A DNA stretch of 60,934 bases from a virus (IMGVR_UViG_3300020385_000001:1-60934); one strand, 5' to 3'; counted from the first letter of the stretch, positions 33,510 to 52,365 are shown. Numbers and translations are program-made. Notes: generated by a model from the sequence alone, not told the origin.

Positions 33510-33611
33510 TTAATTTTCGTCTTTTAGTACTGGTTCATTGTTTTCATCGTAATGAACATAAATCCATTTATCTTCGATCACGTCATAGTATTTATTAAAA
33601 CGGTAAATCAT
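33510..33611 (-). CDS. Tiny ORF (33 aa), below cutoff
   Basis: Manual translation gives MIYRFNKYYDVIEDKWIYVHYDENNEPVLKDEN. Its stop abuts the primase ATG and its start lies inside the SSB gene's 3' end. Confidence 0.3.
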   Translation of the reverse strand: MIYRFNKYYDVIEDKWIYVHYDENNEPVLKDEN

Positions 33612-33909
33612 CTGCTACAGGTTGAGGTTTAGGGGCTACAGGCGCCGACTGTATATTATCTCTGGGCGCAGGCTCTACATTTTGTCCATTAGTCCAAACA
33701 ACATTTATATTGCCTAAGTAAACTTTAGGTTCTTTACTTTCGCGTTGTTCTTTTGTTTGTTGAACAGTAAGTGATCCTTGTTGACCAAATTGATCAATAT
33801 CATCATTAATAGTAATTGTTACAGGTAAGTATTTTCCTTTCTTACCTTCAATAATTTTGTCCTTTGGGACTTTTGATAAATTAATACTTGTGTTTAAAAT
33901 AGTTGCCAT
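33595..33909 (-). CDS. ssDNA-binding-like protein with bacterial SSB-type acidic tip
   Basis: The C-terminus ...PQPVADDLPF mimics the SSB tail (DDDIPF-type). It sits in the recombination/replication module. Confidence 0.55.
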   Translation of the reverse strand: MATILNTSINLSKVPKDKIIEGKKGKYLPVTITINDDIDQFGQQGSLTVQQTKEQRESKEPKVYLGNINVVWTNGQNVEPAPRDNIQSAPVAPKPQPVADDLPF

Positions 33910-33919
33910 ATAATAAAAT

Positions 33920-34651
33920 TTAAAGTGTTTCGTTTATAAAATATTGGTTAGGGTCAAAGTTAGGTGTATTATAATGTAAATCAAACATTTCGCATGCTTT
34001 TATTACTTTATCTTCTCCTCTTTGTAAAAACTTTTCAGAACAATCACACAATTTAATTTTATGTGTGTTTTTATCCATAGCTATAAATACCATTTCAAAT
34101 CCAAAAAGTTTATTGTAAATGTAAGCCTGGCTGTCATAATTAAATTTAGAAGCACTGAATCTAAAATTGTCAAGATTTGTTGTAGTTTTTAAATCAATGA
34201 CTAAATGCTCATCATAATTAATTATATCAGCCTTAGCTTTCCATTTAACATCATTTATTATACCCATAGCAGGCTCTTCATAAATCATATTAGAGCCTGT
34301 AATTAAGCTTTCTATAAATTTGTTTTTAAGAAGTTTTTCAGTCATTGCTTCAACCATATCTGCTTCTTCTTGTAATAAACACATCTCACCATCTGATATT
34401 TCTTTATAGTGTTTTGTATTTCTACTAGAGCTTTCTATAATTCTAAACGATTTGACTTTTTCAGGTTCAAGTATAATAGTATGAAAATATCCACCTATAA
34501 GCATAGCAGGCGTTTTTGCTATGGGTTTATACAAATTTTCGGGCTCGCTTAACAGAGTTTTAATATTTGAATTGCTTAAATATTGTTGGCCAAACTTACC
34601 GTAGTAATGTTCATCCTCCCTGAGCTTATCTATTATCTCTTTATGATTCAT
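33920..34651 (-). CDS. PD-(D/E)XK exonuclease (RecB/Cas4-like, recombination exonuclease)
   Basis: ...ADIINYDEHLVIDLKTT... and ...DSQAYIY match the D...(D/E)xK plus QxxxY motifs. It lies adjacent to Erf. Confidence 0.65.
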   Translation of the reverse strand: MNHKEIIDKLREDEHYYGKFGQQYLSNSNIKTLLSEPENLYKPIAKTPAMLIGGYFHTIILEPEKVKSFRIIESSSRNTKHYKEISDGEMCLLQEEADMVEAMTEKLLKNKFIESLITGSNMIYEEPAMGIINDVKWKAKADIINYDEHLVIDLKTTTNLDNFRFSASKFNYDSQAYIYNKLFGFEMVFIAMDKNTHKIKLCDCSEKFLQRGEDKVIKACEMFDLHYNTPNFDPNQYFINETL

Positions 34652-35224: not shown

Positions 35225-35977
35225 TTACAGATAATCAAGCACTTGCGAGCTATCTACGTTGTCAATTAGTTTTTGTATCGCTGCCTTTTTTATTTCAGAT
35301 ATCCTTACGTAAGAGCTAGGCCCTTCAATACCTATAATCTTTGCAATATCATTGGCAGAATGCTTATCACAATCTAATCCGTAAGATAAGCGTAAAACTT
35401 CATACTCTTTTGGATTAAGATTCTTTTTTAATATACTTTTTAAATACATATTAAGCATACCTAAATTATATGGTTCAGATCTATCAGGCACTTGATCAAA
35501 ATAACTTTCTTCATTATCAGCCTGTTCATCTATACTTAAAAATATACTATTAAAAAATATTTCAACTATTTTTTTATCTTGGGGGTTTTGGCGCATTTCA
35601 TTTAATCTATGCTCTGGAATCCGTATATGTCCTCTTGTTATATCAATTGATCTTCTAATTGCACCTTTAATTCTTTTAGAAAGAAATGATTTAATTGTTT
35701 TTTCAGGGTCTTCTGATTCAACTATTTTGCTCATTTCTATTTTATCAACCGCTGCTATAAGACCTTTACTGCCTTCTTGTATAAGGTCAGTTATATCTAA
35801 TATGCCTGATGCTTGTTGTGTGGTTGCAAATTTATGTGCCATATTTTCTACAAGTGGTAAAAACTTTATGATCAGCTCATCTCTAGTGTAAAGATCATAC
35901 GTTCGTTTATTTTCTGGCATACTGTTTTGTAAATCAGTTTTATACCGAATGTAATTCTTTACATTATATTTTTTCAT
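35225..35977 (-). CDS. Sigma-70 family RNA polymerase sigma factor
   Basis: Region 2 is DLIQEGSKGLIAAVDKIE. The region 4 HTH is EYEVLRLSYGLD...SANDIAKIIGI...VRISEIKKAAIQKL. Confidence 0.8.
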   Translation of the reverse strand: MKKYNVKNYIRYKTDLQNSMPENKRTYDLYTRDELIIKFLPLVENMAHKFATTQQASGILDITDLIQEGSKGLIAAVDKIEMSKIVESEDPEKTIKSFLSKRIKGAIRRSIDITRGHIRIPEHRLNEMRQNPQDKKIVEIFFNSIFLSIDEQADNEESYFDQVPDRSEPYNLGMLNMYLKSILKKNLNPKEYEVLRLSYGLDCDKHSANDIAKIIGIEGPSSYVRISEIKKAAIQKLIDNVDSSQVLDYL

Positions 35978-35981
35978 GTGC

Positions 35982-36596
35982 TTATATCATAGAGTTCAAT
36001 AAATTTTTTTCGGTTTTTAATTGGTTATCGAGGTTTCTGTACACGGTCCGGGTTGAACAGCCAAGCATCCGCGCGATGGTTTGAACTGTTATGCATTCAT
36101 GCATATCGTGTATAGCATTCATGCATTCATATATATTTTCTTTTGTTGCAATCTTAGATCTACCTATTAGCTTACCTACGATGCTCAACTTCTCTGATTT
36201 GGTTAGTCCAGTAATATCATTGAATATTATTTTACGCAATTTATTTTTTGGTGGTCGTTCCAAATCTAATTTATAAATGTCATTAATAATACTCATTAAT
36301 ATATCATCAGATATTTCAAAGGTAATAAAATTATTTGGTTTATATGTAATATGTTTACATAAACTTTTAAATCCTTGTTCTGATAAGGTAGGATTTAAAT
36401 ATGTTAATACAAGCAAATGCCATTTTAATGATCTATATGTATTGATCTTAGCTTTACTTCGGAATAGTTCATAGCACTGGTGTGTACCTTCTTTATAAAA
36501 TCTACCCCATTGAAATACTTCAGAAGGTTCATCTGTAACTGGACCTCTCCGATATATTATTCTGTTATTATTTAAGTAGTCCATTCTGCGTGACAT
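35982..36596 (-). CDS. DNA-binding protein with C-terminal HTH (putative transcription regulator)
   Basis: The C-terminus ITVQTIARMLGCSTRTVYRNL is a Hin/resolvase-type HTH. The N-terminal 150 aa are not recognised. Confidence 0.5.
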   Translation of the reverse strand: MSRRMDYLNNNRIIYRRGPVTDEPSEVFQWGRFYKEGTHQCYELFRSKAKINTYRSLKWHLLVLTYLNPTLSEQGFKSLCKHITYKPNNFITFEISDDILMSIINDIYKLDLERPPKNKLRKIIFNDITGLTKSEKLSIVGKLIGRSKIATKENIYECMNAIHDMHECITVQTIARMLGCSTRTVYRNLDNQLKTEKNLLNSMI

Positions 36597-36636
36597 TAGC
36601 CTGCTACTCGTTATATATTAATTACCTTATGTCGCA
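36590..36636 (-). promoter_or_regulatory. Bipartite ~47-nt element, copy X (gene-strand orientation, overlaps the ATG of the HTH gene)
   Basis: The minus strand reads TGCGACATAAGGTAATTAATATATAACGAGTAGCAGGCTAATGTCAC. It shares TGCGACA..AGGTA.TTA and CAGGCTA..GTC.C with copies at 40375 and 41803. Confidence 0.6.
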
Positions 36637-36855
36637 TCACATTTCTAAAAGTTTTAGCCTTTGGCTATACTTCTTAATAAGATCAGCTTTATGTTTTAAT
36701 TTTTCTACCGGCATAATACCACTTCGGTTATAAGATAAAACATCTTCGATTATATCTTGTCTAAGCATATAAATGTTATTCCATATATAATCTTTATGAT
36801 CTTTTGTTCGGCTAACCCAGATTACAATTTGTTTATTACCTATTTTAATTTTCAT
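36637..36855 (-). CDS. Hypothetical early protein (72 aa)
   Basis: Track ORF with start/stop overlap to its neighbours. Confidence 0.55.
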   Translation of the reverse strand: MKIKIGNKQIVIWVSRTKDHKDYIWNNIYMLRQDIIEDVLSYNRSGIMPVEKLKHKADLIKKYSQRLKLLEM

Positions 36856-37293: not shown

Positions 37294-37744
37294 CTATATT
37301 ATCAAGTTTATTACGTAAAACATTTGTAAATTTGTGGCCCATCGATTCCATTTTATCTAAACATCCACGCGTAAAATTATACATTTGTTTATTTTGTAAT
37401 AGTTTGACTCTGTATTTTTCTTTATAAAATCTATCTGGATCAAGACGTTTTACTTGCATTTTCATTTTAGTATCCATATGCTTCTGCAGTTTTAAATATT
37501 TTCGGTGGTAATCTTTTTCCCACAAAGGATTGATTACATTCTCGAATAGTTTAAGGCCGTGAATAACTGTTGCATGATCTTTATCCACAGCGTTGCCTAT
37601 CTTAACTAATGATTCACCTGAATAATCTTGAGCTAATTTATAATAGATTGCTCTAGGGTATACCACATCGCGTCTGCGTGTGCGTTCTTGTATTTTTTTA
37701 TTAAATGCGTTGTTTACTATGTTTCTAATAGCTATCGAGTTCAT
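37262..37744 (-). CDS. DnaA domain-IV-like DNA-binding protein (no AAA+ domain)
   Basis: RTRRRDVVYPRAIYYKLAQDYSGESLVKIGNAVDKDHATVIHGLKLFE parallels E. coli DnaA [49 protein letters not shown]. Confidence 0.7.
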   Translation of the reverse strand: MNSIAIRNIVNNAFNKKIQERTRRRDVVYPRAIYYKLAQDYSGESLVKIGNAVDKDHATVIHGLKLFENVINPLWEKDYHRKYLKLQKHMDTKMKMQVKRLDPDRFYKEKYRVKLLQNKQMYNFTRGCLDKMESMGHKFTNVLRNKLDNIVDDKQFSNDN

Positions 37745-38053: not shown

Positions 38054-38271
38054 AGTCTAATAAAGTTTAATGGTTTAATATATTTGTTAATGAATTTGCC
38101 AATTGATTCAGCATTGCGCATACCTTCGAACATGAATGGTTCAACACTTTTGTAGAGGTATTCTCGGTTGTTGGTGAATGTAAGCTTGAGCTCACTGGTT
38201 TCGTAGTTGTACTCTGCAAGTTTAATGGCTGCAGAATTTACATTGATTCGTTCTTTAATTAATTTTTTCAT
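38050..38271 (-). CDS. KTSC-domain protein
   Basis: SAAIKLAEYNYETSELKLTFTNNREYLYKSVEPFMFEGMRNAESIGKFINKYIK fits the KTSC pattern (S..I....Y......L.V.F..G..Y.Y..V....Y..L..A.S.G.Y....I). Confidence 0.6.
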   Translation of the reverse strand: MKKLIKERINVNSAAIKLAEYNYETSELKLTFTNNREYLYKSVEPFMFEGMRNAESIGKFINKYIKPLNFIRL

Positions 38272-38485
38272 TGTTATTTAATTTTATTATATTATCAAGT
38301 GTCTTACGTGTTAGTTCTGCAGATGGTATTCCATCCACAATATCTGTTGTTACATCTTTAGGATAATGCTTTAATATGTTTTCAATTATTCCGTCTAGCA
38401 CATGATCATCAAGCTCGTTGTTGAGTGTGTAGTGATCTGTCTTGTTTTTGTATGTGATTGATAGCTTACTCAGTCCCATCGTCAT
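38255..38485 (-). CDS. Hypothetical early protein (76 aa)
   Basis: Track ORF. Its 3' end carries motif copy G. Confidence 0.55.
   Translation of the reverse strand: MTMGLSKLSITYKNKTDHYTLNNELDDHVLDGIIENILKHYPKDVTTDIVDGIPSAELTRKTLDNIIKLNNNEKIN
38287..38322 (-). promoter_or_regulatory. 36-nt early motif, copy G (most degenerate)
   Basis: The minus strand reads CTGCAGAACTAACACG-N10-GATAATATAA. The ATG of the KTSC gene lies 15 nt downstream. Confidence 0.5.
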
Positions 38486-38795
38486 CTATATTTTCACTTA
38501 GCCATCTTTCAATTTCAGACTCGTCTATGTATTCATCTACATCATCCATAAGGATTCTAGCCTCAGGAATATCTTCAGCAACTTGTACTATGCGCTCCAT
38601 GATGGTATCAAAATCAGGTTGATAATAGTATACATCATTTTCCCAGCTAAGACAGCCAGGGTCTTCGGTTAAGATATAAACGTTATATCCGTCTGCTGTC
38701 ATGTACTCAGTTAATTGTAAATCATTATCACAATAGTTGTCAAAGTTTGTAATGGTTACATTTAGGTGTTTTTCTAGTCTTTCTAATGGTGTCAT
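38466..38795 (-). CDS. Highly acidic early protein (109 aa, about 30 Asp/Glu vs 5 Arg/Lys)
   Basis: Track ORF. Composition was counted by hand. Confidence 0.6.
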   Translation of the reverse strand: MTPLERLEKHLNVTITNFDNYCDNDLQLTEYMTADGYNVYILTEDPGCLSWENDVYYYQPDFDTIMERIVQVAEDIPEARILMDDVDEYIDESEIERWLSENIDDDGTE

Positions 38796-38806
38796 AATTT
38801 TTGGTT

Positions 38807-38953
38807 TTAAAGTTGTTGGTTTAATATATAATTTAATACTTGTTTAGTTGTTCCAGTCATGCTTTGCTCAACATTATTTTGGTCTTGAAACGAAAGTTTA
38901 TAGAACTTAGGTTTGTGTATTTCAAACTCGGTGTTAAATTTATTTCCTGCCAT
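38807..38953 (-). CDS. Small early protein (48 aa), below cutoff
   Basis: Manual translation gives MAGNKFNTEFEIHKPKFYKLSFQDQNNVEQSMTGTTKQVLNYILNQQL. It has the same 17-nt leader TTAAAACCAAAAATTATG as the next gene. Confidence 0.45.
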   Translation of the reverse strand: MAGNKFNTEFEIHKPKFYKLSFQDQNNVEQSMTGTTKQVLNYILNQQL

Positions 38954-39083
38954 AATTTTTGGTTTTAAGGTTTATAATATTGTACGGAGGAGGAGGAACA
39001 TTACCCTCGCTTCATCTCGAGATTCTATCTGCCCGTCGGCAATCCCCCGTAGCTGATTACACATATATGCATGTGTATAGCAT

Positions 39084-39299
39084 TTAGTCTTCGACCTGTT
39101 CAGGTGCTTTATATTTGTTATCAATGTAGTCAATCAATCTTACCGTGAAGTATTCGATTAAGTCATTGCCTTCAAAGCCATCATCAAGTAATGGTTTAAG
39201 CTTTTCAATGTTGTAGTCAAACGCCCAGTCGTCAACTAAACCTCTCATGCGTTCGTGCTTTCTTCTAAGTTCTAAATAGTTTTCTAGTTTGTTACTCAT
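39084..39299 (-). CDS. Acidic early protein (71 aa)
   Basis: Track ORF, preceded by motif copy F. Confidence 0.6.
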   Translation of the reverse strand: MSNKLENYLELRRKHERMRGLVDDWAFDYNIEKLKPLLDDGFEGNDLIEYFTVRLIDYIDNKYKAPEQVED

Positions 39300-39321
39300 A
39301 ATTATTATTTTTTAGATTCAT

Positions 39322-39357
39322 ATATATTATCAATAGCCTTGCGTATTTATTCTGTAA
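39322..39357 (-). promoter_or_regulatory. 36-nt early motif, copy F
   Basis: The minus strand reads TTACAGAATAAATACG-N10-GATAATATAT, with an ATG 22 nt downstream. Confidence 0.6.
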
Positions 39358-39499
39358 GCCCGTGAGCTATCTTAAGTAATTCAACCGTGCTTTCGTGTTC
39401 GGCTTCAACACGCCATGCATTCTTCTCCTTTACTTCTAATCTCCAGTTGTTCATATTGAATCCACCTCGTATCTGCCAATCTTGTATGTTTCTTTTCAT
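39347..39499 (-). CDS. Small early protein (50 aa), below cutoff
   Basis: Manual translation gives MKRNIQDWQIRGGFNMNNWRLEVKEKNAWRVEAEHESTVELLKIAHGLTE. Its stop lies inside motif F. Confidence 0.45.
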   Translation of the reverse strand: MKRNIQDWQIRGGFNMNNWRLEVKEKNAWRVEAEHESTVELLKIAHGLTE

Positions 39500-39642
39500 C
39501 CTATATATTCTAATAAGTTTTTAATCTTCTTTAAATTCTTGTGTGCAATTTGTGCATTCATAAAGTGTGCATAGTCTGGGCCAAGTTCAACCAGGTCATC
39601 GACCGTTTGGCGTAGCTCGTAGAGTTTGTCTTTTGTTTTCAT
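39496..39642 (-). CDS. Small early protein (48 aa), below cutoff
   Basis: Manual translation gives MKTKDKLYELRQTVDDLVELGPDYAHFMNAQIAHKNLKKIKNLLEYIG. It has ATGA overlaps at both ends. Confidence 0.45.
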   Translation of the reverse strand: MKTKDKLYELRQTVDDLVELGPDYAHFMNAQIAHKNLKKIKNLLEYIG

Positions 39643-39824
39643 AATTGATTTACTATTTTAGTTTTTAATTCATTTATAAATTCTATATATCTATCACCTG
39701 ATAAATGTTCAGTATACTCGTTGCCATCTGTTTGCCATGCAATTGCTTCTTGTATGTATTCAGTAACAATTGGTGTAATCTCATCGGCTAAATGTTCTAA
39801 TGCTTTTTGTTTTATATCATTCAT
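39639..39824 (-). CDS. Hypothetical early protein (61 aa)
   Basis: Track ORF. Confidence 0.55.
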   Translation of the reverse strand: MNDIKQKALEHLADEITPIVTEYIQEAIAWQTDGNEYTEHLSGDRYIEFINELKTKIVNQL

Positions 39825-39825
39825 A

Positions 39826-39972
39826 TTATTTATTTTTTAAATATATATTATAATCTTCTTTTACTTTATCTAATACTCTGCTTAAATCTTGGGGGTCATA
39901 ATCAAAGGTTGAAACTTTCATCCAGTGTGCAATGGATTCTAAGGATTCAATTGCTTGTTCTTTATTTGTCAT
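39826..39972 (-). CDS. Small early protein (48 aa), below cutoff
   Basis: Manual translation gives MTNKEQAIESLESIAHWMKVSTFDYDPQDLSRVLDKVKEDYNIYLKNK. Confidence 0.45.
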   Translation of the reverse strand: MTNKEQAIESLESIAHWMKVSTFDYDPQDLSRVLDKVKEDYNIYLKNK

Positions 39973-39983
39973 ATTGTTTTAGT

Positions 39984-40244
39984 TTATGTTCCGCTATAAC
40001 CCCAGGCCCCAGCTTCGCTGTTTAAATATTCATCTTGCATTGCATCTACTTTTGCTTTAGCATCATACTTAGATGCATGATCTTTAATTGCATGTATAGC
40101 ATCTGATATATCATCAAAGTTGATGTGTGTATGTGCTGACGGTCTTTTGAGTATTACCGTTGCACCCATTGAACTGATCTTATTTCCCATATAATCATAT
40201 GTACCAGTCTTAAAGTCATACATTTTATTTGATAAATTTTTCAT
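39984..40244 (-). CDS. Hypothetical early protein (86 aa)
   Basis: Track ORF. Confidence 0.55.
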   Translation of the reverse strand: MKNLSNKMYDFKTGTYDYMGNKISSMGATVILKRPSAHTHINFDDISDAIHAIKDHASKYDAKAKVDAMQDEYLNSEAGAWGYSGT

Positions 40245-40328
40245 TTGTAAAGGTGTTAAATTATTTGTATATATTTTTTTTGTTGGTGTTTTAATGCATA
40301 ATCAGTGTACACATATATAATTATTTAT

Positions 40329-40364
40329 AATTATTATCGGGTTGATTACGTATTTATTTTGTAA
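40329..40364 (-). promoter_or_regulatory. 36-nt early motif, copy H
   Basis: The minus strand reads TTACAAAATAAATACG-N10-GATAATAATT, with an ATG 84 nt downstream. Confidence 0.5.
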
Positions 40365-40374
40365 CGTTTCTCAG

Positions 40375-40420
40375 TGCGACATAAGGTACTTAATATAGAT
40401 TAATAACAGGCTATTGTCAC
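40375..40420 (+). promoter_or_regulatory. Bipartite ~47-nt element, copy Y (antisense to the early genes)
   Basis: The plus strand reads TGCGACATAAGGTACTTAATATAGATTAATAACAGGCTATTGTCAC. Confidence 0.55.
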
Positions 40421-40524
40421 ACTTCTTCAAATTCACAATTCTCTTTACAATCTCCACATCTTTCACTATCGATGTCTCCGAGCCATGGACTTGCACCGCA
40501 GCAGTTTGATACTAATTCAGTCAT
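40417..40524 (-). CDS. Cys-rich miniprotein (35 aa), below cutoff
   Basis: Manual translation gives MTELVSNCCGASPWLGDIDSERCGDCKENCEFEEV (5 Cys). It is preceded by motif copy A at 13 nt. Confidence 0.45.
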   Translation of the reverse strand: MTELVSNCCGASPWLGDIDSERCGDCKENCEFEEV

Positions 40525-40537
40525 AATTTTTATTTTA

Positions 40538-40573
40538 TTATATTATCAGTTAGTTAACGTATTATTTTTGTAA
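40538..40573 (-). promoter_or_regulatory. 36-nt early motif, copy A
   Basis: The minus strand reads TTACAAAAATAATACG-N10-GATAATATAA. Confidence 0.6.
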
Positions 40574-40765
40574 GGTTTCTTTCATGTCATCAAGTTCTGC
40601 TATGTCTTGAGTAATTAAGAATGATAGTTCCCTGTCATCGTTTTCCATTATGTATTCTATTAGATCCAGTCTATCTGTAATATCATCTTGACTTTCATCA
40701 TTATAAATTTGTATTAAAGTATTGTACACTTCATCTCTGTCATAGTAACTGTTAATGTATTCCAT
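40562..40765 (-). CDS. Highly acidic early protein (67 aa)
   Basis: Track ORF. Its stop codon lies inside motif A. Confidence 0.6.
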   Translation of the reverse strand: MEYINSYYDRDEVYNTLIQIYNDESQDDITDRLDLIEYIMENDDRELSFLITQDIAELDDMKETLQK

Positions 40766-40785
40766 AGTTTTATATTTTAAGTTTA

Positions 40786-40821
40786 TTATATTATCAAATT
40801 AAGAACGTGTTATTTCTGTAA
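40786..40821 (-). promoter_or_regulatory. 36-nt early motif, copy B
   Basis: The minus strand reads TTACAGAAATAACACG-N10-GATAATATAA, with an ATG 20 nt downstream. Confidence 0.6.
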
Positions 40822-40856
40822 ATCCGCTTCACTTCGGTCGACGAAGGAGGTGAGGT

Positions 40857-41009
40857 TCAGCCCAGCTTGCTGAGACGCCAGTCAATCTTTGTAAGTATGT
40901 TACTGACATGTATTTCGAATTTGTCTTTATCGTTCGGAACATCGTCTCCGTTTAGAAGATCGTACATTGCATACCTCATCAAGTTCAATTCGTTCTTTGT
41001 GAATTTCAT
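40857..41009 (-). CDS. Small early protein (50 aa), below cutoff
   Basis: Manual translation gives MKFTKNELNLMRYAMYDLLNGDDVPNDKDKFEIHVSNILTKIDWRLSKLG. A GC-rich hairpin (about 40827-40856) follows. Confidence 0.45.
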   Translation of the reverse strand: MKFTKNELNLMRYAMYDLLNGDDVPNDKDKFEIHVSNILTKIDWRLSKLG

Positions 41010-41010
41010 A

Positions 41011-41145
41011 TTATATGTTTTTAATTATATTTATTTGTTCTTCGATTTCTTTTATTCTTTCTTTATTATCATTAGAGTTTTCTCTGGAGTCAACTACTTG
41101 TTCGAGTAGAGTTTCGAGTGCGAGTATTATTAAGTATTTATTCAT
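41011..41145 (-). CDS. Small early protein (44 aa), below cutoff
   Basis: Manual translation gives MNKYLIILALETLLEQVVDSRENSNDNKERIKEIEEQINIIKNI. Confidence 0.4.
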   Translation of the reverse strand: MNKYLIILALETLLEQVVDSRENSNDNKERIKEIEEQINIIKNI

Positions 41146-41158
41146 ATTATATATTTTA

Positions 41159-41194
41159 TTATATTATCAAATGTATTACGTATTTATTCTGTAC
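41159..41194 (-). promoter_or_regulatory. 36-nt early motif, copy C
   Basis: The minus strand reads GTACAGAATAAATACG-N10-GATAATATAA, with an ATG 13 nt downstream. Confidence 0.6.
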
Positions 41195-41342
41195 ACTCTC
41201 GAACTTCTTTTATATTGTCTAAGCCCCATTCTGCAGCTGCATATTTAGTTGCTTCCATTATGCTATTTGCTTTTACATAACTTTTAAAGTGTGTTGCTAC
41301 TCCTCTTTTAAGCCAAGTGGCTTCTTTAATTACTTCGTACAT
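41187..41342 (-). CDS. Small early protein (51 aa), below cutoff
   Basis: Manual translation gives MYEVIKEATWLKRGVATHFKSYVKANSIMEATKYAAAEWGLDNIKEVRECTE. Its stop lies inside motif C. Confidence 0.45.
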
Positions 41343-41367
41343 ATCTTTTATATTTTATTAATTACAT

Positions 41368-41403
41368 TTATATTATCAAATTAGTTGCGTATTAACTTTG
41401 TAA
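41368..41403 (-). promoter_or_regulatory. 36-nt early motif, copy D
   Basis: The minus strand reads TTACAAAGTTAATACG-N10-GATAATATAA, with an ATG 25 nt downstream. Confidence 0.6.
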
Positions 41404-41550
41404 ACGTTTTTTTAATTCATAAATAATATCTACCATTAGGTCGCCATGCTTATCATGGTCACATTCGCCATGTGTTTCGATTAGGTGGTCTACCACGATG
41501 CCATGAATCGCATCGAATGATTGAGTACTTAGTTCTTTTAATGTCATCAT
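41392..41550 (-). CDS. Small early protein (52 aa), below cutoff; first gene of the minus arm
   Basis: Manual translation gives MMTLKELSTQSFDAIHGIVVDHLIETHGECDHDKHGDLMVDIIYELKKRLQS. Its stop lies inside motif D. Confidence 0.45.
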   Translation of the reverse strand: MMTLKELSTQSFDAIHGIVVDHLIETHGECDHDKHGDLMVDIIYELKKRLQS

Positions 41551-41573
41551 ATTTATTATTTTATTAATTACAT

Positions 41574-41609
41574 TTATATTATCAAATGGACAACGTATTA
41601 TTTTTGCAA
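41574..41609 (-). promoter_or_regulatory. 36-nt early motif, copy E (outermost)
   Basis: The minus strand reads TTGCAAAAATAATACG-N10-GATAATATAA, with an ATG 23 nt downstream. Confidence 0.6.
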
Positions 41610-41639: not shown

Positions 41640-41700
41640 TCAATACTTACGTGCAAATTCTGTAAAAAGCTGAAACCTACGTGATTTTTCTGTAAAAGCT
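41640..41700 (-). repeat. Two tandem ~30-nt units, each carrying only the upstream half-box (TTACAGAA...CACG)
   Basis: The minus strand reads GCTTTTACAGAAAAATCACGTAGGTTTCA then GCTTTTTACAGAATTTGCACGTAAGTATTGA. The half-boxes lie at 41679-41697 and 41649-41667. Confidence 0.6.
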
Positions 41701-41802
41701 TGGGGGGCTGGGGTAAACAAAAACGATTTCCGTAACGTGCTGACAATCATATACATATGCGCAACACAATTATTCCCAATATCTAACAAGTTTTTTCAGC
41801 AG

Positions 41803-41850
41803 TGCGACAATAGGTAATTATAAATACTTAAGTAACAGGCTAACGTCGCA
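41803..41850 (+). promoter_or_regulatory. Bipartite ~47-nt element, copy Z (heads the plus-strand arm)
   Basis: The plus strand reads TGCGACAATAGGTAATTATAAATACTTAAGTAACAGGCTAACGTCGCA. The ends TGCGAC/GTCGCA are inverted repeats. Confidence 0.55.
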
Positions 41851-45111: not shown

Positions 45112-47781
45112 ATGGCAATAATTAATAGCTATCCTTTAGCTACACCAAAATTAACGGATTTAGTTCTAGGTACTTCAACTAGTAGTACGGGGCAAACCTC
45201 TACTAAGAGCTTTACCATACAAAGTATCAAAGATACCACGGCTGCGGTTAAAACAATAGTAACAGCTACACCTGACACTCTTGCTATTACAGGAACAACT
45301 AATGTTACTATTAATACAATTACCGCAGCGGTAACAAACGGTGGAAACAGTTTAGCTACAGGGAATGATATATATGATTTTGTAGTCGGTAAAATTACCG
45401 GTACTGCAAATACCGTACCTATATGGACAGATACAACAACATTAGGTGATTCATTAATTAGCCAGGCTAATAATTCCGTTATTATAAACGGCTCTGGAAC
45501 TGATGGAAGAATACAACTTAATTGTTCTAATGGTAATCACGGTGTTGGAATACAAAGTCCACCACATTCCGCTGGGGCTACATATGACTGGATATTGCCT
45601 CAAAGTGCCGGAACAGCTGGGCAAGTGTTAACATCAGGGGGCGGTGCTACAGATCAGCTAACATGGTCAACAAACGGTAATGTTGGCGGTACTGGTACAG
45701 CTAATAAATTATCTAAATGGACAAATGCTAATACACTAGCTGATTCTAATGTAGAAGATACGGGTAGTTTAGTAACTATATCAAGTGCTGCTAAAGTAAC
45801 GGGTAATTTAGAACTTGATGCAGATTTACTTGATGTTAATGGAGGTACAGGTACAGCCGGCCAATTGTTATCATCACTAGGAACAGGTAATGGTATTGAT
45901 TGGGTTGATGCGCCTGTAACAGGTGTTGTAACAGTAACCAGTGCAGACACAGATGTTATTACAGTAGGAGGCACATCCACTAACCCAACTATAGATGCTA
46001 ACACGGGGACTGTTTCTTCAAGCTCTGATAACTTAGCTACGGGTAAAGAAATACAAGCCGCTATTGATTTAACTGTTTTAACGGTAGCTACGGGTAATTC
46101 TGATACAATAACAATAGGTGGTACTGCAACAAATCCTACGGTTGCTGCAAACACCGCATCCGGAGTGGGGGCTAACCTGGATAACTTAGCTACTGGCGGT
46201 CAAATACAAGCGGCTATTGATGCAGCGCTAGCGGGAGCAGTTACATTTAAAGGAACTTTTAACGCAAGTACTGGTGCAATAACAGGCGGAGGTAATCTTA
46301 CTTCTGGGGGTTCCCGAGTTGCGGTTGCAGTAGGTGATATGTATGTTGTAAGTGTTGGAGGTAATTTTTATGGTAACTCATCTACACCATTAAACGTAGG
46401 CGACGAGGTAATTGCTGTATCTGCCGCAGTTGCCGGAGCATCAGTAGAGGGAGATTGGAATGCGGTCCCTTCAGCGGGCGGCGGTATAACCGGCGGGGGC
46501 ACAACTAATAAAGTTCCATTATGGACAGGTACAACTGTTTTAGGAGATTCTGCAATTGCACAAAGTGGTACTAATATAGGAATAGGGACAACTAGTCCTG
46601 CTGAAAAATTAACTGTATCTGGAAATGTAAACTTTACTGGAAAACTTGCAGTTGGCTTATCAGCCGCCCATTCTTCTATTGCGTTCTATAATCAAAACGA
46701 TGCTTATTTTAATGGCGCTGTAACTATTGATGATACTTTTACACAATCTGGCGGTGGCGCTTCTACTTTTTCAGGCAACGTAGGAATAGGGACTACTAGT
46801 CCTGATGCTAAGTTAGACATTCAAGGCGATGGTGCAGATTTTTTCTTACAGTCAGCCGACTTTAAACTAGCAAGAATACAACCAAGAGGTACTGGAGCAA
46901 ATTTAGATAAAGGATTGTTTTCTTTGTTTAATGGTAGCACAGAAAGTTTTAGGCTTGATACAGAAGGAAATTCTTGGTTAAACGGGGGTAATGTGAGCAT
47001 AGGGCATACAAGCCCCACCGCTCCCCTTGATGTTCGCAGGTCAGACGCTAGTGGTAGAGTAGCTGAATTTCACAATAATGGTGGCTATGGTATTAATATT
47101 GATGTGGAGGCGGACGGAGGTGTTAATACTATTGGCTCAGCAACTAACCAAGCGTTAGCCTTTGTAACAAATGGGGGCTCAAATGAAAAAATGCGCATTG
47201 CCTCTGATGGCAACGTAGGAATAGGCGAGGATAACCCAAACAGTGATTTACATATTACTGACAGCTTTCCAAGAATCACTTTGCAAGATTCTGACGGTAC
47301 GAATCAAATGGGCTTTTTAGATTTTAGCAATGGCCAGCTAGGTATTAATTCGCGGGACGGAACATCTTATGGCGAAATAAGATTTTATAGATTTAACGGC
47401 ACTGCTACTGAAGAAAGTATGCGTATAAGTTCTTCTGGCCAAGTTAAGTTTAACAATTATACAGCGCCAGGCTCATTTACTGGCACTGCAGCTGCTAATC
47501 TAGCTGTTGATAGTAGTGGTAACATTATAACAGAGGCTGCCAGCGGCGGTGGTGGTGGTGGAACTAAAACTGTATCTACTGTAGCTTCAGTTGCAGCTGG
47601 CGTATCAACTCATGCTTTGGGAGTTACTGTTACTACAACCCCTTTGGTTAATTATGTTGATTTATATATATCTGGTGTTTATCAAAGTAAAACTTCTTAT
47701 ACTGTAAGTGGTAGCACATTAACTTTAACGGGGGCAACATTCCCAACTGGTGCATTAATTGAAACAGTAACAACTACATAA
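45112..47781 (+). CDS. Tail fibre protein 3 (889 aa) with internal repeats
   Basis: The N-terminus is MAIINSYPLATPKLTDLVLGT...TKSFTIQSI. It has tandem ~45-aa repeats (I.(V/I)GGT.TNPT..ANT...DNLATG..IQAAID) and 4 copies of GN(V)(G/S)IG.(T/D)(S/N)P...L. Confidence 0.7.
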   Translation: MAIINSYPLATPKLTDLVLGTSTSSTGQTSTKSFTIQSIKDTTAAVKTIVTATPDTLAITGTTNVTINTITAAVTNGGNSLATGNDIYDFVVGKITGTANTVPIWTDTTTLGDSLISQANNSVIINGSGTDGRIQLNCSNGNHGVGIQSPPHSAGATYDWILPQSAGTAGQVLTSGGGATDQLTWSTNGNVGGTGTANKLSKWTNANTLADSNVEDTGSLVTISSAAKVTGNLELDADLLDVNGGTGTAGQLLSSLGTGNGIDWVDAPVTGVVTVTSADTDVITVGGTSTNPTIDANTGTVSSSSDNLATGKEIQAAIDLTVLTVATGNSDTITIGGTATNPTVAANTASGVGANLDNLATGGQIQAAIDAALAGAVTFKGTFNASTGAITGGGNLTSGGSRVAVAVGDMYVVSVGGNFYGNSSTPLNVGDEVIAVSAAVAGASVEGDWNAVPSAGGGITGGGTTNKVPLWTGTTVLGDSAIAQSGTNIGIGTTSPAEKLTVSGNVNFTGKLAVGLSAAHSSIAFYNQNDAYFNGAVTIDDTFTQSGGGASTFSGNVGIGTTSPDAKLDIQGDGADFFLQSADFKLARIQPRGTGANLDKGLFSLFNGSTESFRLDTEGNSWLNGGNVSIGHTSPTAPLDVRRSDASGRVAEFHNNGGYGINIDVEADGGVNTIGSATNQALAFVTNGGSNEKMRIASDGNVGIGEDNPNSDLHITDSFPRITLQDSDGTNQMGFLDFSNGQLGINSRDGTSYGEIRFYRFNGTATEESMRISSSGQVKFNNYTAPGSFTGTAAANLAVDSSGNIITEAASGGGGGGTKTVSTVASVAAGVSTHALGVTVTTTPLVNYVDLYISGVYQSKTSYTVSGSTLTLTGATFPTGALIETVTTT

Positions 47782-47784
47782 TAC

Positions 47785-48828
47785 ATGGCAATAACTAAAG
47801 TAAGAGCTTCTGGTATAGACCTTAGTGGCAATACAACTTTTTTAGCTTTGCCAAAAGGAACTACCGCTCAAAGACCTTCTTCTCCAGTATCTGGAATGAT
47901 TCGCGAAAATACAACTCTAAACCAATTAGAGTTTTACAATGGCACAGACTGGCGTGTAATGAAACAAGCTGTGCCAGATATAGAATACCTTGTATTAGCC
48001 GGGGGCGGTGGAGGCGGTGGCTGGGGTGGCGGCGGCGGAGCCGGCGGATTACTTACTAGTTCATTTGTGCCTGTATCGGGAACAACTTATACAGTAGCTA
48101 TTGGAACTGGCGGAACTGCAGGCGGATATAGCAGCAGTTATTATTCTGGAGGACAGGGTAATAATTCATCTATTTCAGGATCAGGTCTAACAACTATAAC
48201 CGCTATAGGCGGTGGGGGTGGCGGACGATATGATGCTAATGCAGGTGACGGTTGGCCTGGAGGCTCGGGTGGGGGGGCATCTTCAAGACATCCAAGTTAT
48301 AGCGGAGGAATCGGTGGCGCGGGAACATCAGGCCAAGGAAACGATGGCGGAGCCACTGCCTCCAGTGGAAGTTTTTATCCAGCAGGCGGCGGCGGCGGTG
48401 GGGCAGGAGCTGCGGGTGCCGGCGGAAGTGGCAATCAAGGAGGCACAGGAGGAATCGGAATACAATCTAATATTACAGGTAGTAATAAATATTATGCTGG
48501 AGGTGGTGCAGGAATAACTACTCAATCTAATACTGTATCAGCCGGAGGCAATGGCGGTGGAGGAGCGGGATCTCGGTATAATACAGCGTCTGGATCGATG
48601 AGTGAAATTGTTGCTATTTCTGGCACAAACGGATTAGGTGGTGGAGGCGGCGGTGCAAGTTATCCTAGTAGTGCGGGCGCTGGTGGAAATGGAACCGTAA
48701 TAATTAAATTACCTACTTCTTTTACAATAAGCGTTACAGGATCACCAACATTAAATCCCGATGGAGCAGTGTCTGGATTTAATATTTATGAATTTGGTAC
48801 AGGGGGTGGAACATTTACAATAAGCTAA
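47785..48828 (+). CDS. Glycine-rich tail fibre/adhesin paralog A (347 aa)
   Basis: MAITKV...LPKGTTAQRPSSPVSGMIRENTTLNQLEFYNGTDW, then YLVLAGGGGGGG... Gly-rich body, ending GGNGTVIIKLP. Confidence 0.65.
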   Translation: MAITKVRASGIDLSGNTTFLALPKGTTAQRPSSPVSGMIRENTTLNQLEFYNGTDWRVMKQAVPDIEYLVLAGGGGGGGWGGGGGAGGLLTSSFVPVSGTTYTVAIGTGGTAGGYSSSYYSGGQGNNSSISGSGLTTITAIGGGGGGRYDANAGDGWPGGSGGGASSRHPSYSGGIGGAGTSGQGNDGGATASSGSFYPAGGGGGGAGAAGAGGSGNQGGTGGIGIQSNITGSNKYYAGGGAGITTQSNTVSAGGNGGGGAGSRYNTASGSMSEIVAISGTNGLGGGGGGASYPSSAGAGGNGTVIIKLPTSFTISVTGSPTLNPDGAVSGFNIYEFGTGGGTFTIS

Positions 48829-51218
48829 TGGCAATAACAAAAGTAATAAATGATTTAATTGATTTAAATCAAACAGGAGATTATAGCGGAATTAGATTAC
48901 CGGAAGGCACAACAGCAGATAGAACAGAAACTTTTACAGCAGATTATTTAGTTGTAGCCGGCGGTGGAGGTACAGGCACAGATAGTCCTGGCGGTGGCGG
49001 CGGTGGAGGTTTGCGTACTTCTTATAATAATTCAACAACTACTACAAACACTTTAAGTTTCCCATCTGGAAAAACGGCAATAGCTACATATATGCTAGAT
49101 GGAAATGCTACAGACGTTTCTGGTAATTATAATGGGGCAGAAAGTTCTATAACTTACAATACAGGACAATACGGCGGAGCTGCAGTGTTTAATGGTAGTA
49201 GTAGTACTATATCTATACCAAATCTTAAATCCGTACTAAATAATAATTTCAGTGTTTCCTTTTGGTGGAAACCAGAGCTTATGAATACATTTCAAGTTCC
49301 TATAGGAGGGCTTTATGATGAAGCTGGAGGAGCTGCTTATGGATGGATGGTTTATCAGGGTAGTGATAATAAAATGTATTTATACTGGATTATTTCTATA
49401 TCACCTAATACATCAAATGCTTTTAGTAATAATACAGTTTTAACTCAAGGTAGCTGGTATCACATTGTAGCAACCAAATCTTCAACAGGTGCTGCTCTAT
49501 ATGTAAATAAAGCTGATGCGGCAAGTAGCCCAAGTGCAGGAAGTGTGTGGAATATAGAATATACCACCAACCCTAATTTTTATTTTGGAAAAAGAAATGT
49601 TTCTAATAGTTATGCTAATGGAGTATTAGACCAAGTAAGATTATATAATACTATATTAACTCAAACTAATGTAGATGATCTTTATAACAATGAAGTACAA
49701 GCAAATTCCGGAGGGGGAACCCCAGCTGAATCAAGTTTAACATTAGAAGCGGGTACTTCTTATGGTATAACTGTAGGAGATGGAGGAACAAAAGCAGCGG
49801 GTAGTAATTCAGTTTTTTCTAATATAACTTCTGATGGAGGTGGGGCCGGTGGAGGATCAGGCTCAAGCGCAGGATATAATGGCGGTAATGGAGGGTCCGG
49901 TGGAGGGGCTTCAGGTGGTAATTATTCATTACCCGGCGGAAATGGTACTACTGCACAGGGATATGCTGGTGGTGGATCAGGATCGCAGGCCGGCACTGGA
50001 TACCCAGGTGGTGGAGGTGGGGGTGCCTCTGCTAAAGGGCAAACACTTGCAACTTCATCGGATAATGGTGGTACAGGGGGTGATGGAGTTATTACTAATA
50101 TTTTAAATTCTACAAATGCTGCTTCATCTTATGTAGGAGAAGTTTCTGGTTCAAATGTTTATTATTCTGGGGGTGGAGGCGGATCTACCTATACTACAAC
50201 ATTAGGTGCGGGAGGGCTTGGTGGAGGTGCTGATGGTCAAAAATATATAGATGCCCAGACTACAAATAATGGTACTACAAACACAGGTGGTGGAGGTGGA
50301 GCTCAAAATTCTACAGGTGGTTCGGGTGTAGTAATACTTCGTTATCCTACAGCCAATGTAACTAGCTTTACAACTTCAGGTACTTTAATAACCCCTTCTG
50401 CAACAGACACAGTAGCAAATACAGCTTACCCGGTGGCTAATGAAGCATATTATAAATTAGATGGTAATGTAAACGAAGCAACTGGTACACATACTGCAAC
50501 TGCTCATAATATTACTTATTCGAATGGTGGGGTTTATAATCAAGCAGCCGTTTTTGATGGGGGTGCATATATAGACAGCGGATATACAGCTGTATCAAGT
50601 ACAAGCGCATCTATTTCTTTTTGGGTTAATATAAGAGCTTATACAGTTTATGGAGGATTTGTTGGAGACAGCACAGGCCAATCAGCAGCATCTCGGTTTT
50701 TTATAGGACAAGGTGCTGGAACAGCAGGAAATTTATGGGTTAGTATAGGAAACGGAAGCTCTTCATGGTATGATGAGACTACTGTAAGTTTAACTAGTTA
50801 CGGTCTTAATAAATGGTTTCATGTAGTAGGAACGGTAAATGGCACAACAGTAAAAATATATATAAACGGAAGTTTAGTGCATACTTATACAAGTAGCGTA
50901 AGTTATGCAGGAGCTGGCACTTTTCCTTATTATTTTGGCGGTTGGGGTAACGCTTTACGTTTAGATGGACTTATGGACCAAATTAGATTTTATAGTACTG
51001 AATTAAGTCAGGCTTATGTAACAGACCTTTATAATGAACATTATAAAACTTTATATACTGAAGGCAGTGATACTGTATTAGTATTTAATAGAGGTACAGG
51101 AACAATAAATTTTACAGGAACAGGTCCAATCCCACCTTCTGGGGCTATAAGATATAATACAACAACAAAAACAATAGAATTTTACAATGGAGCATGGGTT
51201 GAGACTGCTACCTCATAA
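48828..51218 (+). CDS. Glycine-rich tail fibre/adhesin paralog B with two LamG-like lectin domains (796 aa)
   Basis: MAITKV...LPEGTTADR...DYLVVAGGGG. There are two LamG-type modules (YMLDGNATDVSGN...LDQVRLYNTILT and YYKLDGNVNEATG...MDQIRFYSTELS). The C-terminus is IRYNTTTKTIEFYNGAW. Confidence 0.7.
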   Translation: MAITKVINDLIDLNQTGDYSGIRLPEGTTADRTETFTADYLVVAGGGGTGTDSPGGGGGGGLRTSYNNSTTTTNTLSFPSGKTAIATYMLDGNATDVSGNYNGAESSITYNTGQYGGAAVFNGSSSTISIPNLKSVLNNNFSVSFWWKPELMNTFQVPIGGLYDEAGGAAYGWMVYQGSDNKMYLYWIISISPNTSNAFSNNTVLTQGSWYHIVATKSSTGAALYVNKADAASSPSAGSVWNIEYTTNPNFYFGKRNVSNSYANGVLDQVRLYNTILTQTNVDDLYNNEVQANSGGGTPAESSLTLEAGTSYGITVGDGGTKAAGSNSVFSNITSDGGGAGGGSGSSAGYNGGNGGSGGGASGGNYSLPGGNGTTAQGYAGGGSGSQAGTGYPGGGGGGASAKGQTLATSSDNGGTGGDGVITNILNSTNAASSYVGEVSGSNVYYSGGGGGSTYTTTLGAGGLGGGADGQKYIDAQTTNNGTTNTGGGGGAQNSTGGSGVVILRYPTANVTSFTTSGTLITPSATDTVANTAYPVANEAYYKLDGNVNEATGTHTATAHNITYSNGGVYNQAAVFDGGAYIDSGYTAVSSTSASISFWVNIRAYTVYGGFVGDSTGQSAASRFFIGQGAGTAGNLWVSIGNGSSSWYDETTVSLTSYGLNKWFHVVGTVNGTTVKIYINGSLVHTYTSSVSYAGAGTFPYYFGGWGNALRLDGLMDQIRFYSTELSQAYVTDLYNEHYKTLYTEGSDTVLVFNRGTGTINFTGTGPIPPSGAIRYNTTTKTIEFYNGAWVETATS

Positions 51219-51228
51219 AAAATATTAA

Positions 51229-52365
51229 ATGGCAAATACTATAATTAACACACCAGAATTATTAGATTTTGGTTCATCCACTGGAGCAACAATTTTACCT
51301 AAAGGAGCATCTAGCGAGCGCCCCCCTTCTGCAAATATCGCAGGCATTGATTATTTAGTAGTAGCTGGTGGAGGTGGTGGTGGAACTGGTGTTACTGCTT
51401 CCACAATTGGCACAGGAGGTGGCGGTGGCGCTGGAGGTTTGCGTACATCGTATGGTTCAACTTCCGGAGGTGGATCGTCTGCGGAATCAAGCTTAGATTT
51501 ATTAGTAGCAACTAATTACACTGTTACAGTAGGTACCGGAGGGAATGGCGGTACTGCAGGTTCTAGCGGTGCAACTAATGGACAAGATTCAGTTTTTAGC
51601 TCAATTACTTCTGTAGGCGGGGGTGCCGCTGGTAGTTATAGAAATCCTACAAGTTCAAGTTATTACGCACAAGTAGGCGGATCGGGTGGAGGGTCAACCT
51701 ATCGTGGCGCGTCCGGTACTACCGGTGCCGATGGAACAGCAAATCAAGGATACAAGGGAGGTAATGATTTAGGCAACGGAGGAGCGTCTGCATATGGTGC
51801 CGGTGGTGGTGGTGGTGCATCTGCCGTGGGTGTAAACGGAAATGGAACCGCCCCTGGGGGCGGGGGCAATGGTCTAGCGGTAGCTATAACTGGTTCTTCT
51901 GTAACATACGCTGGAGGCGGTGGTGCAGGAGGAGTCCAAGGATATACTCAAGCTGTTGGCGGAGCAGGCGGAGGTGGCGCTGGTGGCGTTGGAAATGGAA
52001 ATGCTGGAACTGCTGGGACTGCAAACACCGGCGGTGGCGGCGGGGGTGGTGGTAAAACGTCTGCTTCTGGAACATTGCCAGGCAGCGGGGGTGTTGGGGG
52101 CTCTGGTATAGTTATTTTAAGATATGCTAGCACAATAACAATTACAGTCGGGTCTGGATTAACTACGGGCGTATTAAACGCAACTGTTTCAGGAAGCACT
52201 GATAAGTATACTACTTTTACTTCTGGTACTGGCACTATAACATTTGCAAATTCTTATTCTGGTCCTTTTGCTACAGAAGGAGATTTTAGATTTAATACTA
52301 GCACTAATAAAACAGAATTTTATAATGGGACTAGCTGGAAACAAATAATTGATGAACCAGCTTAA
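51229..52365 (+). CDS. Glycine-rich tail fibre/adhesin paralog C (378 aa)
   Basis: ...LPKGASSERPPSA..DYLVVAGGGGGG...GGSGIVILRYA...FRFNTSTNKTEFYNGTSW. Confidence 0.65.
   Translation: MANTIINTPELLDFGSSTGATILPKGASSERPPSANIAGIDYLVVAGGGGGGTGVTASTIGTGGGGGAGGLRTSYGSTSGGGSSAESSLDLLVATNYTVTVGTGGNGGTAGSSGATNGQDSVFSSITSVGGGAAGSYRNPTSSSYYAQVGGSGGGSTYRGASGTTGADGTANQGYKGGNDLGNGGASAYGAGGGGGASAVGVNGNGTAPGGGGNGLAVAITGSSVTYAGGGGAGGVQGYTQAVGGAGGGGAGGVGNGNAGTAGTANTGGGGGGGGKTSASGTLPGSGGVGGSGIVILRYASTITITVGSGLTTGVLNATVSGSTDKYTTFTSGTGTITFANSYSGPFATEGDFRFNTSTNKTEFYNGTSWKQIIDEPA

Follow-up and report, generated by a model that had tools for sequence, protein, structure and literature searches.

A three-block promoter-like array in the early arm of an uncultured phage, with a FliA-like phage sigma factor as its candidate reader

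Introduction

The virus sequence IMGVR_UViG_3300020385_000001:1-60934, analysed here at its full length of 60,934 bp and referred to below as the window, carries in its minus-strand gene arm nine copies of a rigid 36-nucleotide (nt) motif, denoted class A, whose conservation and placement make it very probably a phage-specific class of promoter. Three near-invariant blocks, the last of them a GATAAT hexamer, compose the motif, which recurs on one strand and before small genes throughout a clade of related phages. As to what reads it, we lean, though not strongly, towards the phage's own FliA-like sigma factor, whose gene lies downstream of the array on the same strand and which is the best-supported of three candidate readers.

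The main sigma factor of Bacteroidota has an unusual promoter code and, to our knowledge, phage takeover of transcription in this phylum has hardly been studied except in the crAss-like phages, which bring a polymerase of their own. Here, the sequence alone provides a promoter with base-precise predicted starts together with a candidate cognate sigma factor, in a clade of carriers that is uncultured and very abundant. Were the pairing true, it would be the first phage sigma-promoter pair described for Bacteroidota, and a ready-made orthogonal expression switch for a phylum short of genetic tools.

A rigid motif repeated in the early arm

A sequence-only reading of the window had described eight copies of a bipartite motif, with a 16-nt and a 10-nt box held exactly 10 nt apart, and had proposed a dense phage-specific promoter array. 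All eight are present but the count was one short, a ninth lying at 37294-37329, and the nine full copies, every one on the minus strand, keep the 16 + 10 + 10 nt spacing without deviation (Table 1). Allowing up to three mismatches, the pattern as first given finds seven minus-strand copies against none expected from 100 shuffles. A 60-nt weight matrix, built mainly from relatives and used to score the whole genome on either strand, assigns the nine sites 17.7-45.3 bits, while the next best position in the genome reaches 0.8 and the best of 50 shuffles 6.7. The motif is overlaid on coding sequence, as had been noted: box 1 supplies the stop codon of the preceding gene in the copies ending at 41403, 41194, 40573 and 39357, and those ending at 38322 and 37329 are embedded in coding sequence over their full length. 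An ATG does follow box 2 after 13-25 nt in seven of the original copies, and after 84 nt in the copy at 40329, but the nearly leaderless transcripts deduced from this spacing are expected of copy 9 only, most predicted leaders being 11-23 nt long. Box 1 itself holds two TAC(A/G)A half-sites 11 nt apart, and it also occurs twice without GATAAT, in tandem just upstream of copy 1, an arrangement kept in the closest relative. Elsewhere, a sequence that resembles box 2 with its leader (TAATATGATAATATAAAATTAATTAATAAAAT, minus strand) is found at 2948-2982, in the interval that separates the portal gene from the structural gene after it, in antisense orientation and with no box 1 upstream.

Table 1. 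Class A copies and associated features of the window, with transcription starts predicted from the motif register and scores from the 60-nt weight matrix.
Feature	Position	Strand	Predicted start	Leader (nt)	Start codon	Score (bits)	Remarks
Class A copy 1	41574..41609	-	G 41571	21	ATG 41550	38.7	TTGCAAAAATAATACG-N10-GATAATATAA; precedes 52-aa ORF
Class A copy 2	41368..41403	-	41365	23	ATG 41342	45.3	box 1 contains stop codon of ORF 41392-41550
Class A copy 3	41159..41194	-	41156	11	ATG 41145		box 1 contains stop codon of ORF 41184-41342
Class A copy 4	40786..40821	-	40783	18	ATG 40765
Class A copy 5	40538..40573	-	40535	11	ATG 40524		precedes small Cys-rich ORF; box 1 contains stop codon of ORF 40562-40765
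Class A copy 6	40329..40364	-	40326	82	ATG 40244	32.6	box 2 tail degenerate (GATAATAATT), GATAAT kept
Class A copy 7	39322..39357	-	39319	20	ATG 39299		box 1 contains stop codon of ORF 39347-39499
Class A copy 8	38287..38322	-	38284	13	ATG 38271		entirely within ORF 38255-38485
Class A copy 9	37294..37329	-	G 37291	1	ATG 37290	17.7	TTACAAATGTTTTACG-N10-GATAATATAG; within 3' end of DnaA-domain-IV-like gene; ATG 3 nt past box 2; near-leaderless mRNA predicted
Box-1-only half-sites	41650..41665 and 41680..41695	-					tandem TTACAGAAAAATCACG, TTACAGAATTTGCACG; without GATAAT
Phage sigma factor	35225..35977	-					sigma-70 family, 250 aa; FliA/WhiG-like region 2, FliA/SigK-like region 4
Helix-turn-helix (HTH) protein	35982..36596	-					204 aa; probable binder of class B, not class A
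Class B palindrome	36597..36650	-					approximately GTGACAnTAGCC-N20-GGCTAnTGTCAC; overlaps HTH start codon; not part of array
Other class B copies	40372-40425 and 41797-41850	+					palindrome conserved in relatives
aa, amino acids; ORF, open reading frame.

Beyond the window, the loose pattern TTACA-N8-ACG-N10-GATAAT picked out at least 119 viral contig stretches, many with three to eight copies, and these stretches were then scanned iteratively by matrix. Among the matches listed, 346 unique sites in 86 viral contigs, confined to a single strand per contig in 85 of the 86, give the family logo tTACAAa.taAATACGA-N9-GATAATAtaaatRtaa followed by an A-rich stretch, in which TACA, AATACGA and GATAATA stand out as near-invariant blocks; the stop codon of an upstream ORF falls inside 187 of the sites. 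The early arms of seven relatives repeat the layout of the window, each site standing 45-60 nt before the next small ORF, and there too the HTH and sigma genes come after the array, ahead of genes for ERF and PDDEXK proteins, with one further site beyond in some. Judged by these comparisons the motif is a family trait, and the conservation in relatives on which the first proposal depended is borne out. Numerous short contigs of this clade, several encoding the sigma factor and the HTH protein, also turn up in metagenome-assembled genomes (MAGs) and single-cell genomes, under the labels Chloroflexota, Aliivibrio, Arcobacter, Gammaproteobacteria, Clostridium and Woesearchaeota and in a Prochlorococcus single-cell genome; these are binning contaminants.

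Promoter properties and the predicted start

In the 346-site logo, each base of GATAAT is 99-100% conserved, 99% of sites have a purine as the seventh nucleotide after the hexamer, and in 75% a T precedes that position. The first ORF-opening ATG lies exactly at the purine in 51 sites, as against one site at -1 and one at +1, and a second, broad ATG peak is seen at 18-22 nt. Since a leaderless mRNA must begin with AUG, a spike of 51 sites is hard to explain unless transcription starts at that purine. The register that results sets TTACAA at -38 to -33, AATACGA at -28 to -22 and GATAAT at -12 to -7, and the features general to sigma-70-family promoters, namely A-11, T-7 and a purine at the predicted start about 7 nt past the hexamer, can all be read from it indirectly. 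Exactly leaderless genes make up about 15% of sites compared with 5.5% in Flavobacterium psychrophilum. In many sites ATGTAA (logo positions 44-49), a start-stop pair whose G would be +1, spans the predicted start (GATAATATAAATGTAA), for example at 41571-41576 and 41365-41370 on the minus strand, this G being conserved in about half of all sites.

Strand specificity, an invariant hexamer and the 51-site ATG peak thus uphold the proposed array, and it is with considerable confidence that we take the motif to be a promoter class. The sites might instead be operators for the HTH or the DnaA-domain-IV-like protein, or boundaries at which cassettes recombine, which would suit a motif that overlaps gene ends, separates units of one to three genes and has box-1-only copies; yet strict orientation, a -10-like hexamer, a purine at the seventh base and the ATG peak are properties of promoters, and for the HTH protein the class B palindrome described below is the stronger candidate as a target, so that this alternative appears very improbable. 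A cassette-shuffling role could nonetheless exist alongside promoter function. No hairpin was found in the motif, all nine copies folding more weakly than shuffles (z +0.2 to +1.3), and no Rfam family matches it; a hairpin or RNA element was rejected on these grounds. The idea that box 1, read in antisense, might be a TAnnTTTG box was dropped because it fits only the TTACAA copies and not the TTACAG ones, and contig ends were discarded as stand-ins for RNA 5' ends, since they belong to metagenomic DNA and do not fall at the predicted starts. A generic scan of the genome for E. coli-type promoters yielded 43 matches against 41.7 expected, which is no enrichment.

Recognition by a phage-encoded RNA polymerase, either packaged in the virion as in N4 and crAss-like phages or of the single-subunit T7 type, would accord with the length of the rigid motif, which resembles that of single-subunit polymerase promoters, and a 2335-aa ORF on the plus strand (17348-24355) has no family assignment. 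However, sequence comparison of its product with PHROG, Pfam and the PDB gave no match and no polymerase family, and the RNA-polymerase catalytic motif DxDGD is missing from it; the sites also show none of the hairpins that characterize N4 promoters, and they are bipartite in the manner of sigma-type promoters, their TATAAT-like hexamer lying as far from the start as is standard. We consider such a polymerase highly improbable as the reader of class A.

Gene arms and probable host

The window is a complete virus genome (34% G+C, 77-bp terminal repeat) with two divergent gene arms. The minus-strand arm, from about 41.6 to 25.7 kb, runs from tiny ORFs through genes for the DnaA-domain-IV-like protein, the HTH protein, the sigma factor and ERF and PDDEXK recombination proteins to those for a primase-helicase, a thymidylate-synthase homolog and ribonucleotide reductase, and the long plus-strand arm holds the structural genes. 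The portal protein is 44-51% identical to podovirus portals of Flavobacterium, Cellulophaga, Maribacter and Tenacibaculum, and no Shine-Dalgarno motif was found before the start codons of the window, where the sequence is A-rich instead. Because the portal relatives infect genera of Flavobacteriia and the sequence upstream of start codons is A-rich and free of Shine-Dalgarno motifs, the host is very probably a member of this class, and the phage is taken to be one of marine flavobacteria. Cultured phages gave no DNA-level match to the window. In the plus-strand arm, the 2335-aa protein is rich in lysine and glutamate and is presumably an internal virion or ejection protein, and GGN-rich direct repeats (families D1, D7 and D9) lie at 47545-52065 within glycine-rich, fibre-like paralogs.

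The phage sigma factor as candidate reader

The nearest solved relative of the phage sigma factor is Aquifex FliA (1rp3, E-value 4e-7), with which it shares RIKGAI in region 2.4 and R.S..K..A in the recognition helix of region 4.2, and its region 2 is matched by the NCBIfam models FliA_WhiG, SigBFG and RpoD. The published register of sigma-28 promoters has GCCGATAA at -15 to -8 and TCTAAAG at -36 to -30 (PMC12784957). In class A, G-12 A-11 T-10 A-9 A-8 (matrix positions 34-38, with +1 at position 46) are identical to the sigma-28 -10 core, and the -35 blocks of the two overlap in position, although class A reads A-34 A-33 A-32 C-31 within TTACAAAC and so differs from the TAAA that sigma-28 promoters have at about -34 to -31. 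A sigma-28-type register explains the 20-nt gap between TTACAA and GATAAT that had seemed non-canonical when the motif was first described. Homologs of the sigma factor, at 50-96% identity, are encoded by all 17 motif-bearing relatives that are at least 90% complete, and these hold 3-22 motif copies each as against none for a reversed control pattern; the sigma-less structural relatives MW202828.1, Elemo phage and Panino have no motif copy. A tblastn search of 50,697 phage records revealed no homolog of this sigma factor in cultured phages, the sole match being a bacterial-like fragment of 58% G+C with a primase and a sigma gene, which is irrelevant here.

Host polymerase, phage sigma factor and HTH protein had all been left open as readers by the sequence-only reading, and the phage sigma factor emerges as the best-supported fit of the three. 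A number of observations weigh on the other side. The protein scores 23 bits against TIGR02479, the FliA family model, whose cut-off is 189.6, and so falls outside that family. Neither the extended -10 GC of sigma-28 promoters (-15/-14) nor their -35 TAAA is conserved in the motif logo, matrix positions 31-33 being weakly a/t-rich and position 33 mixed. All motif carriers belong to one clade, and the co-occurrence of sigma factor and motif amounts to a single lineage-level association; covariation between residues of the sigma factor and the base at -13 was dropped as a line of evidence, the independent lineages being too few. In the window and in seven of seven relatives the array and the sigma gene share a strand, with the array 0.7-5.6 kb upstream, whereas the sigma factors of known phages serve middle or late genes and not the earliest ones. 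A search for a host-type promoter able to set off sigma synthesis gave nothing convincing, only near-matches in the strand-switch region at chance frequency. Lastly, copies with all three blocks intact precede accessory genes in bacterial chromosomes that have no homolog of the phage sigma factor, and the simplest reading of these is a host factor. With these points taken into account, recognition of the array by the phage's own FliA-like sigma factor still appears to us somewhat favoured by the sequences compared.

The array could also consist of early promoters for host RNA polymerase with sigma-A, perhaps aided by an activator at box 1, the phage sigma factor being kept for later genes. The sites do occupy a typical early position, since they open the early arm and precede both its tiny genes and the sigma gene, which matches the usual cascade of SPO1, phiEco32 and T4; box 1 standing alone in two copies suggests a separate DNA-binding protein; A-11 and T-7 are common to every sigma-70-family -10 element; and the late arm could use one or two sigma-dependent promoters that would be invisible as a repeat. 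In F. psychrophilum, whose sigma factors comprise only sigma-A, sigma-54 and seven of the extracytoplasmic function (ECF) type, the sigma-A box is TAnnTTTG at -12 to -5 and none of the six mapped promoter classes resembles GATAAT (PMC9723704); the accessible part of its table of start sites holds none of this class. Class A reads GATAATAT at -12 to -5 and has no TTTG element at -33, sharing only A-11 and T-7 with the sigma-A box T-12 A-11 nn T-8 T-7 T-6 G-5, which its invariant G-12 and A-8/A-6 contradict (PMC9723704). Canonical Bacteroidota matches number 11 in the whole genome, with none at early gene starts and none in the early arm, in agreement with the earlier remark that the arm lacks -33/-7 promoters of this type. 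In contrast, the early arm of the sigma-less Elemo phage, a Flavobacterium phage whose genes are likewise laid out in two arms, has four canonical TTG-N17-21-TAnnTTTG promoters on its coding strand, and on this pattern it is host-type promoters that Elemo uses instead of class A. A phage-made activator, moreover, would meet the same start-up problem as the sigma factor. Host polymerase with sigma-A is on balance an unlikely reader, if by no means a negligible one.

The only canonical host-type promoter near a gene start in the window (TTGATTTACATTATAATACACCTAACTTTG, 33955-33984, minus strand) lies 45 nt before ORF 33595-33909, in the place that a class A site occupies in three relatives. Its upstream half, TTTACATTATAATACAC, resembles box 1, and a hybrid origin or the decay of a class A site may lie behind it.

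The HTH protein, the third candidate, is encoded directly upstream of the sigma factor in six of the seven relatives, three small ORFs intervening in the seventh, and belongs to a very large family, for which metagenomes, Tara Oceans samples among them, yield at least 7,949 clusters at 90% identity. Its AlphaFold model (pLDDT, predicted local distance difference test, 85) has no fold match in the PDB, every E-value being above 1; that so confident a model resembles neither a sigma factor nor any other PDB fold led us to discard a hidden second sigma factor. A class B palindrome overlaps the HTH start codon (in the right arm) in seven of seven relatives and is present in the strand-switch region of all four relatives checked there, a distribution that marks it as probably an operator for the HTH protein. 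As the palindrome overlaps the protein's own start codon and class A is asymmetric, the HTH protein is the less likely reader of class A and the likelier one of class B. Between a class B palindrome and the first class A site lies a C-rich run (ccccagcccccc, 41700-41730, minus strand), which recurs in the non-coding strand-switch region of distant relatives.

Motif copies in Flavobacteriia chromosomes

A strict 18-base pattern, searched for in 185,579 species genomes, matched 102 stretches, most of which are phage contigs mis-binned into MAGs, as they encode the sigma factor and the HTH protein. About 30 are single sites on large Flavobacteriia contigs, in the right orientation and 15-45 nt before genes. 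Twelve Flavobacteriia genomes, picked because each had a match, contain 1-4 chromosomal sites each compared with 0-1 for the reversed control, and none of the twelve encodes either a homolog of the phage sigma factor or a FliA above the family cut-off. Among orthologous chromosomal promoters the three blocks are fixed while the spacers vary. The sites cluster at a conserved group of ORFan genes, whose products include a 459-aa membrane ORFan, a trypsin-like/MORN protein, and TPR and TerB-like proteins beginning MGLFDFLK. Since only 3 of 151 evenly sampled Flavobacteriaceae genomes carry this cluster, it is accessory; Flavobacterium sp. W22_SRS_FP1 (NZ_JBGQOE010000044.1) is a cultured carrier.

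Either a host factor reads the chromosomal motif or the host genes respond to the phage sigma factor. The former might take the shape of a rare host regulon, governed by an atypical ECF sigma factor or a stress regulator, whose promoter the phage clade copied for its early genes. The excess of chromosomal copies over the reversed control, their orientation and their distance from gene starts around the conserved cluster, the invariance of blocks among orthologous promoters with variable spacers, and a divergent ECF sigma gene that adjoins the site at one locus would all be in keeping with such a regulon. However, that ECF gene is a neighbour at this locus only and is not conserved at others, for which reason it was rejected as the host reader; ECF promoters pair an AAC-type -35 element with a -10 element of the CGT type, not GATAAT, some 16-17 nt apart, whereas class A contains no CGT at -10, its sole CG (-24/-23) standing 9 nt upstream of GATAAT. 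The rarity of the cluster, together with some 30 strict chromosomal matches in the entire set of species genomes, does not indicate a broad host factor, and the twelve genomes were selected for having a match. We judge a host regulon of this kind quite improbable as the origin of class A.

The other possibility is that the chromosomal copies represent host genes wired to the phage sigma factor, silent until infection and then acting in defence or as a satellite-like parasite, an idea that we regard as distinctly unlikely. Two identities were considered for the host genes and rejected: known defence families gave only domain-level matches (protease, weak candidate models), and homology to phage early genes came down to one weak match of 38 aa. 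For the motif itself, transcription guided by RNA through dCas12f and an ECF sigma factor (PMC13472631) was dismissed, there being no such gene nearby and the motif being organized in blocks with a normal -10.

A model for recognition by the phage sigma factor

The nine sites are very probably promoters of one phage-specific class, with TTACAR at -38 to -33, AAYACG(A) at -28 to -22, GATAAT at -12 to -7 and a predicted start at the seventh nucleotide past the hexamer, a purine. If the phage's own sigma factor, encoded at 35225-35977, reads the array, it would direct host core RNA polymerase to these sites, its FliA-like region 2 recognising GATAA and its region 4 the TTACAA block. The AAYACG(A) block and the box-1-only half-sites, to which nothing corresponds in known sigma-28 promoters, may bind a further factor. 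The main sigma factor of the host, which requires TAnnTTTG, would mostly ignore class A, and the phage would thereby possess a channel orthogonal to that of its host. The mRNAs would be leaderless or have short, A-rich leaders with no Shine-Dalgarno motif, and their products would be those of the tiny early genes. With the array ahead of its own gene and in the same orientation, the sigma factor would also amplify its own synthesis in a positive loop, one that would need an initial trickle of host-driven transcription.

Comparison with known systems

Class A resembles the promoters of sigma-28 systems (FliA/SigD/WhiG; TAAA-N15-GCCGATAA) in the register of the GATAA core, and its -35 block is placed at about -38 to -32 compared with -36 to -30 in those promoters; the candidate reader, a sigma factor of some 250 aa, has FliA-like region 2.4 (RIKGAI) and region 4.2 helices. 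Class A differs in lacking the extended -10 GC, in having TTACAA for TAAA and in its extra invariant spacer block AAYACG(A), and the systems differ in that the phage protein scores far below the FliA cut-off and the hosts have no flagella and, in the twelve Flavobacteriia genomes, no FliA above that cut-off.

Among phages, SPO1 gp28 and gp33/34, phiEco32 gp36 and T4 gp55 redirect host core polymerase to phage-only promoters that the main sigma factor does not read. The genes transcribed from their promoters are middle or late ones that lie beyond the sigma gene, whereas the class A array precedes both the sigma gene and the smallest early genes. Class A also resembles the promoters of the SPO1 host-takeover module, the T4 early promoters and T7 A1-A3, strong and highly similar promoters that likewise stand one to every one to three tiny early genes. 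Early promoters of SPO1, T4 and T7 are more uniform than those of their hosts; they nevertheless match the consensus of the host main sigma factor, while class A does not match the TTTG/TAnnTTTG of Bacteroidota. Promoters of the T4 MotA or PhoB type offer another parallel, since in these an upstream box replaces the -35 element about 10 nt upstream of a good -10, as box 1 does, and box 1, which also occurs alone, similarly has its two TAC(A/G)A half-sites spaced by one helical turn; here, however, no activator was identified, and the only conserved HTH protein has a palindromic target of its own. With the sigma-A promoters of Bacteroidota, finally, class A has in common the host phylum, A-rich leaders free of Shine-Dalgarno motifs, A-11 and T-7, but it has other bases in place of T-12, T-8, T-6 and G-5 and lacks a TTTG at -33. 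Phage sigma factors with private promoters are thus a known kind of system, and what is distinctive in the present one is the Bacteroidota host phylum, the three-block promoter, the placement of the array ahead of the sigma gene and the occurrence of copies in host chromosomes.

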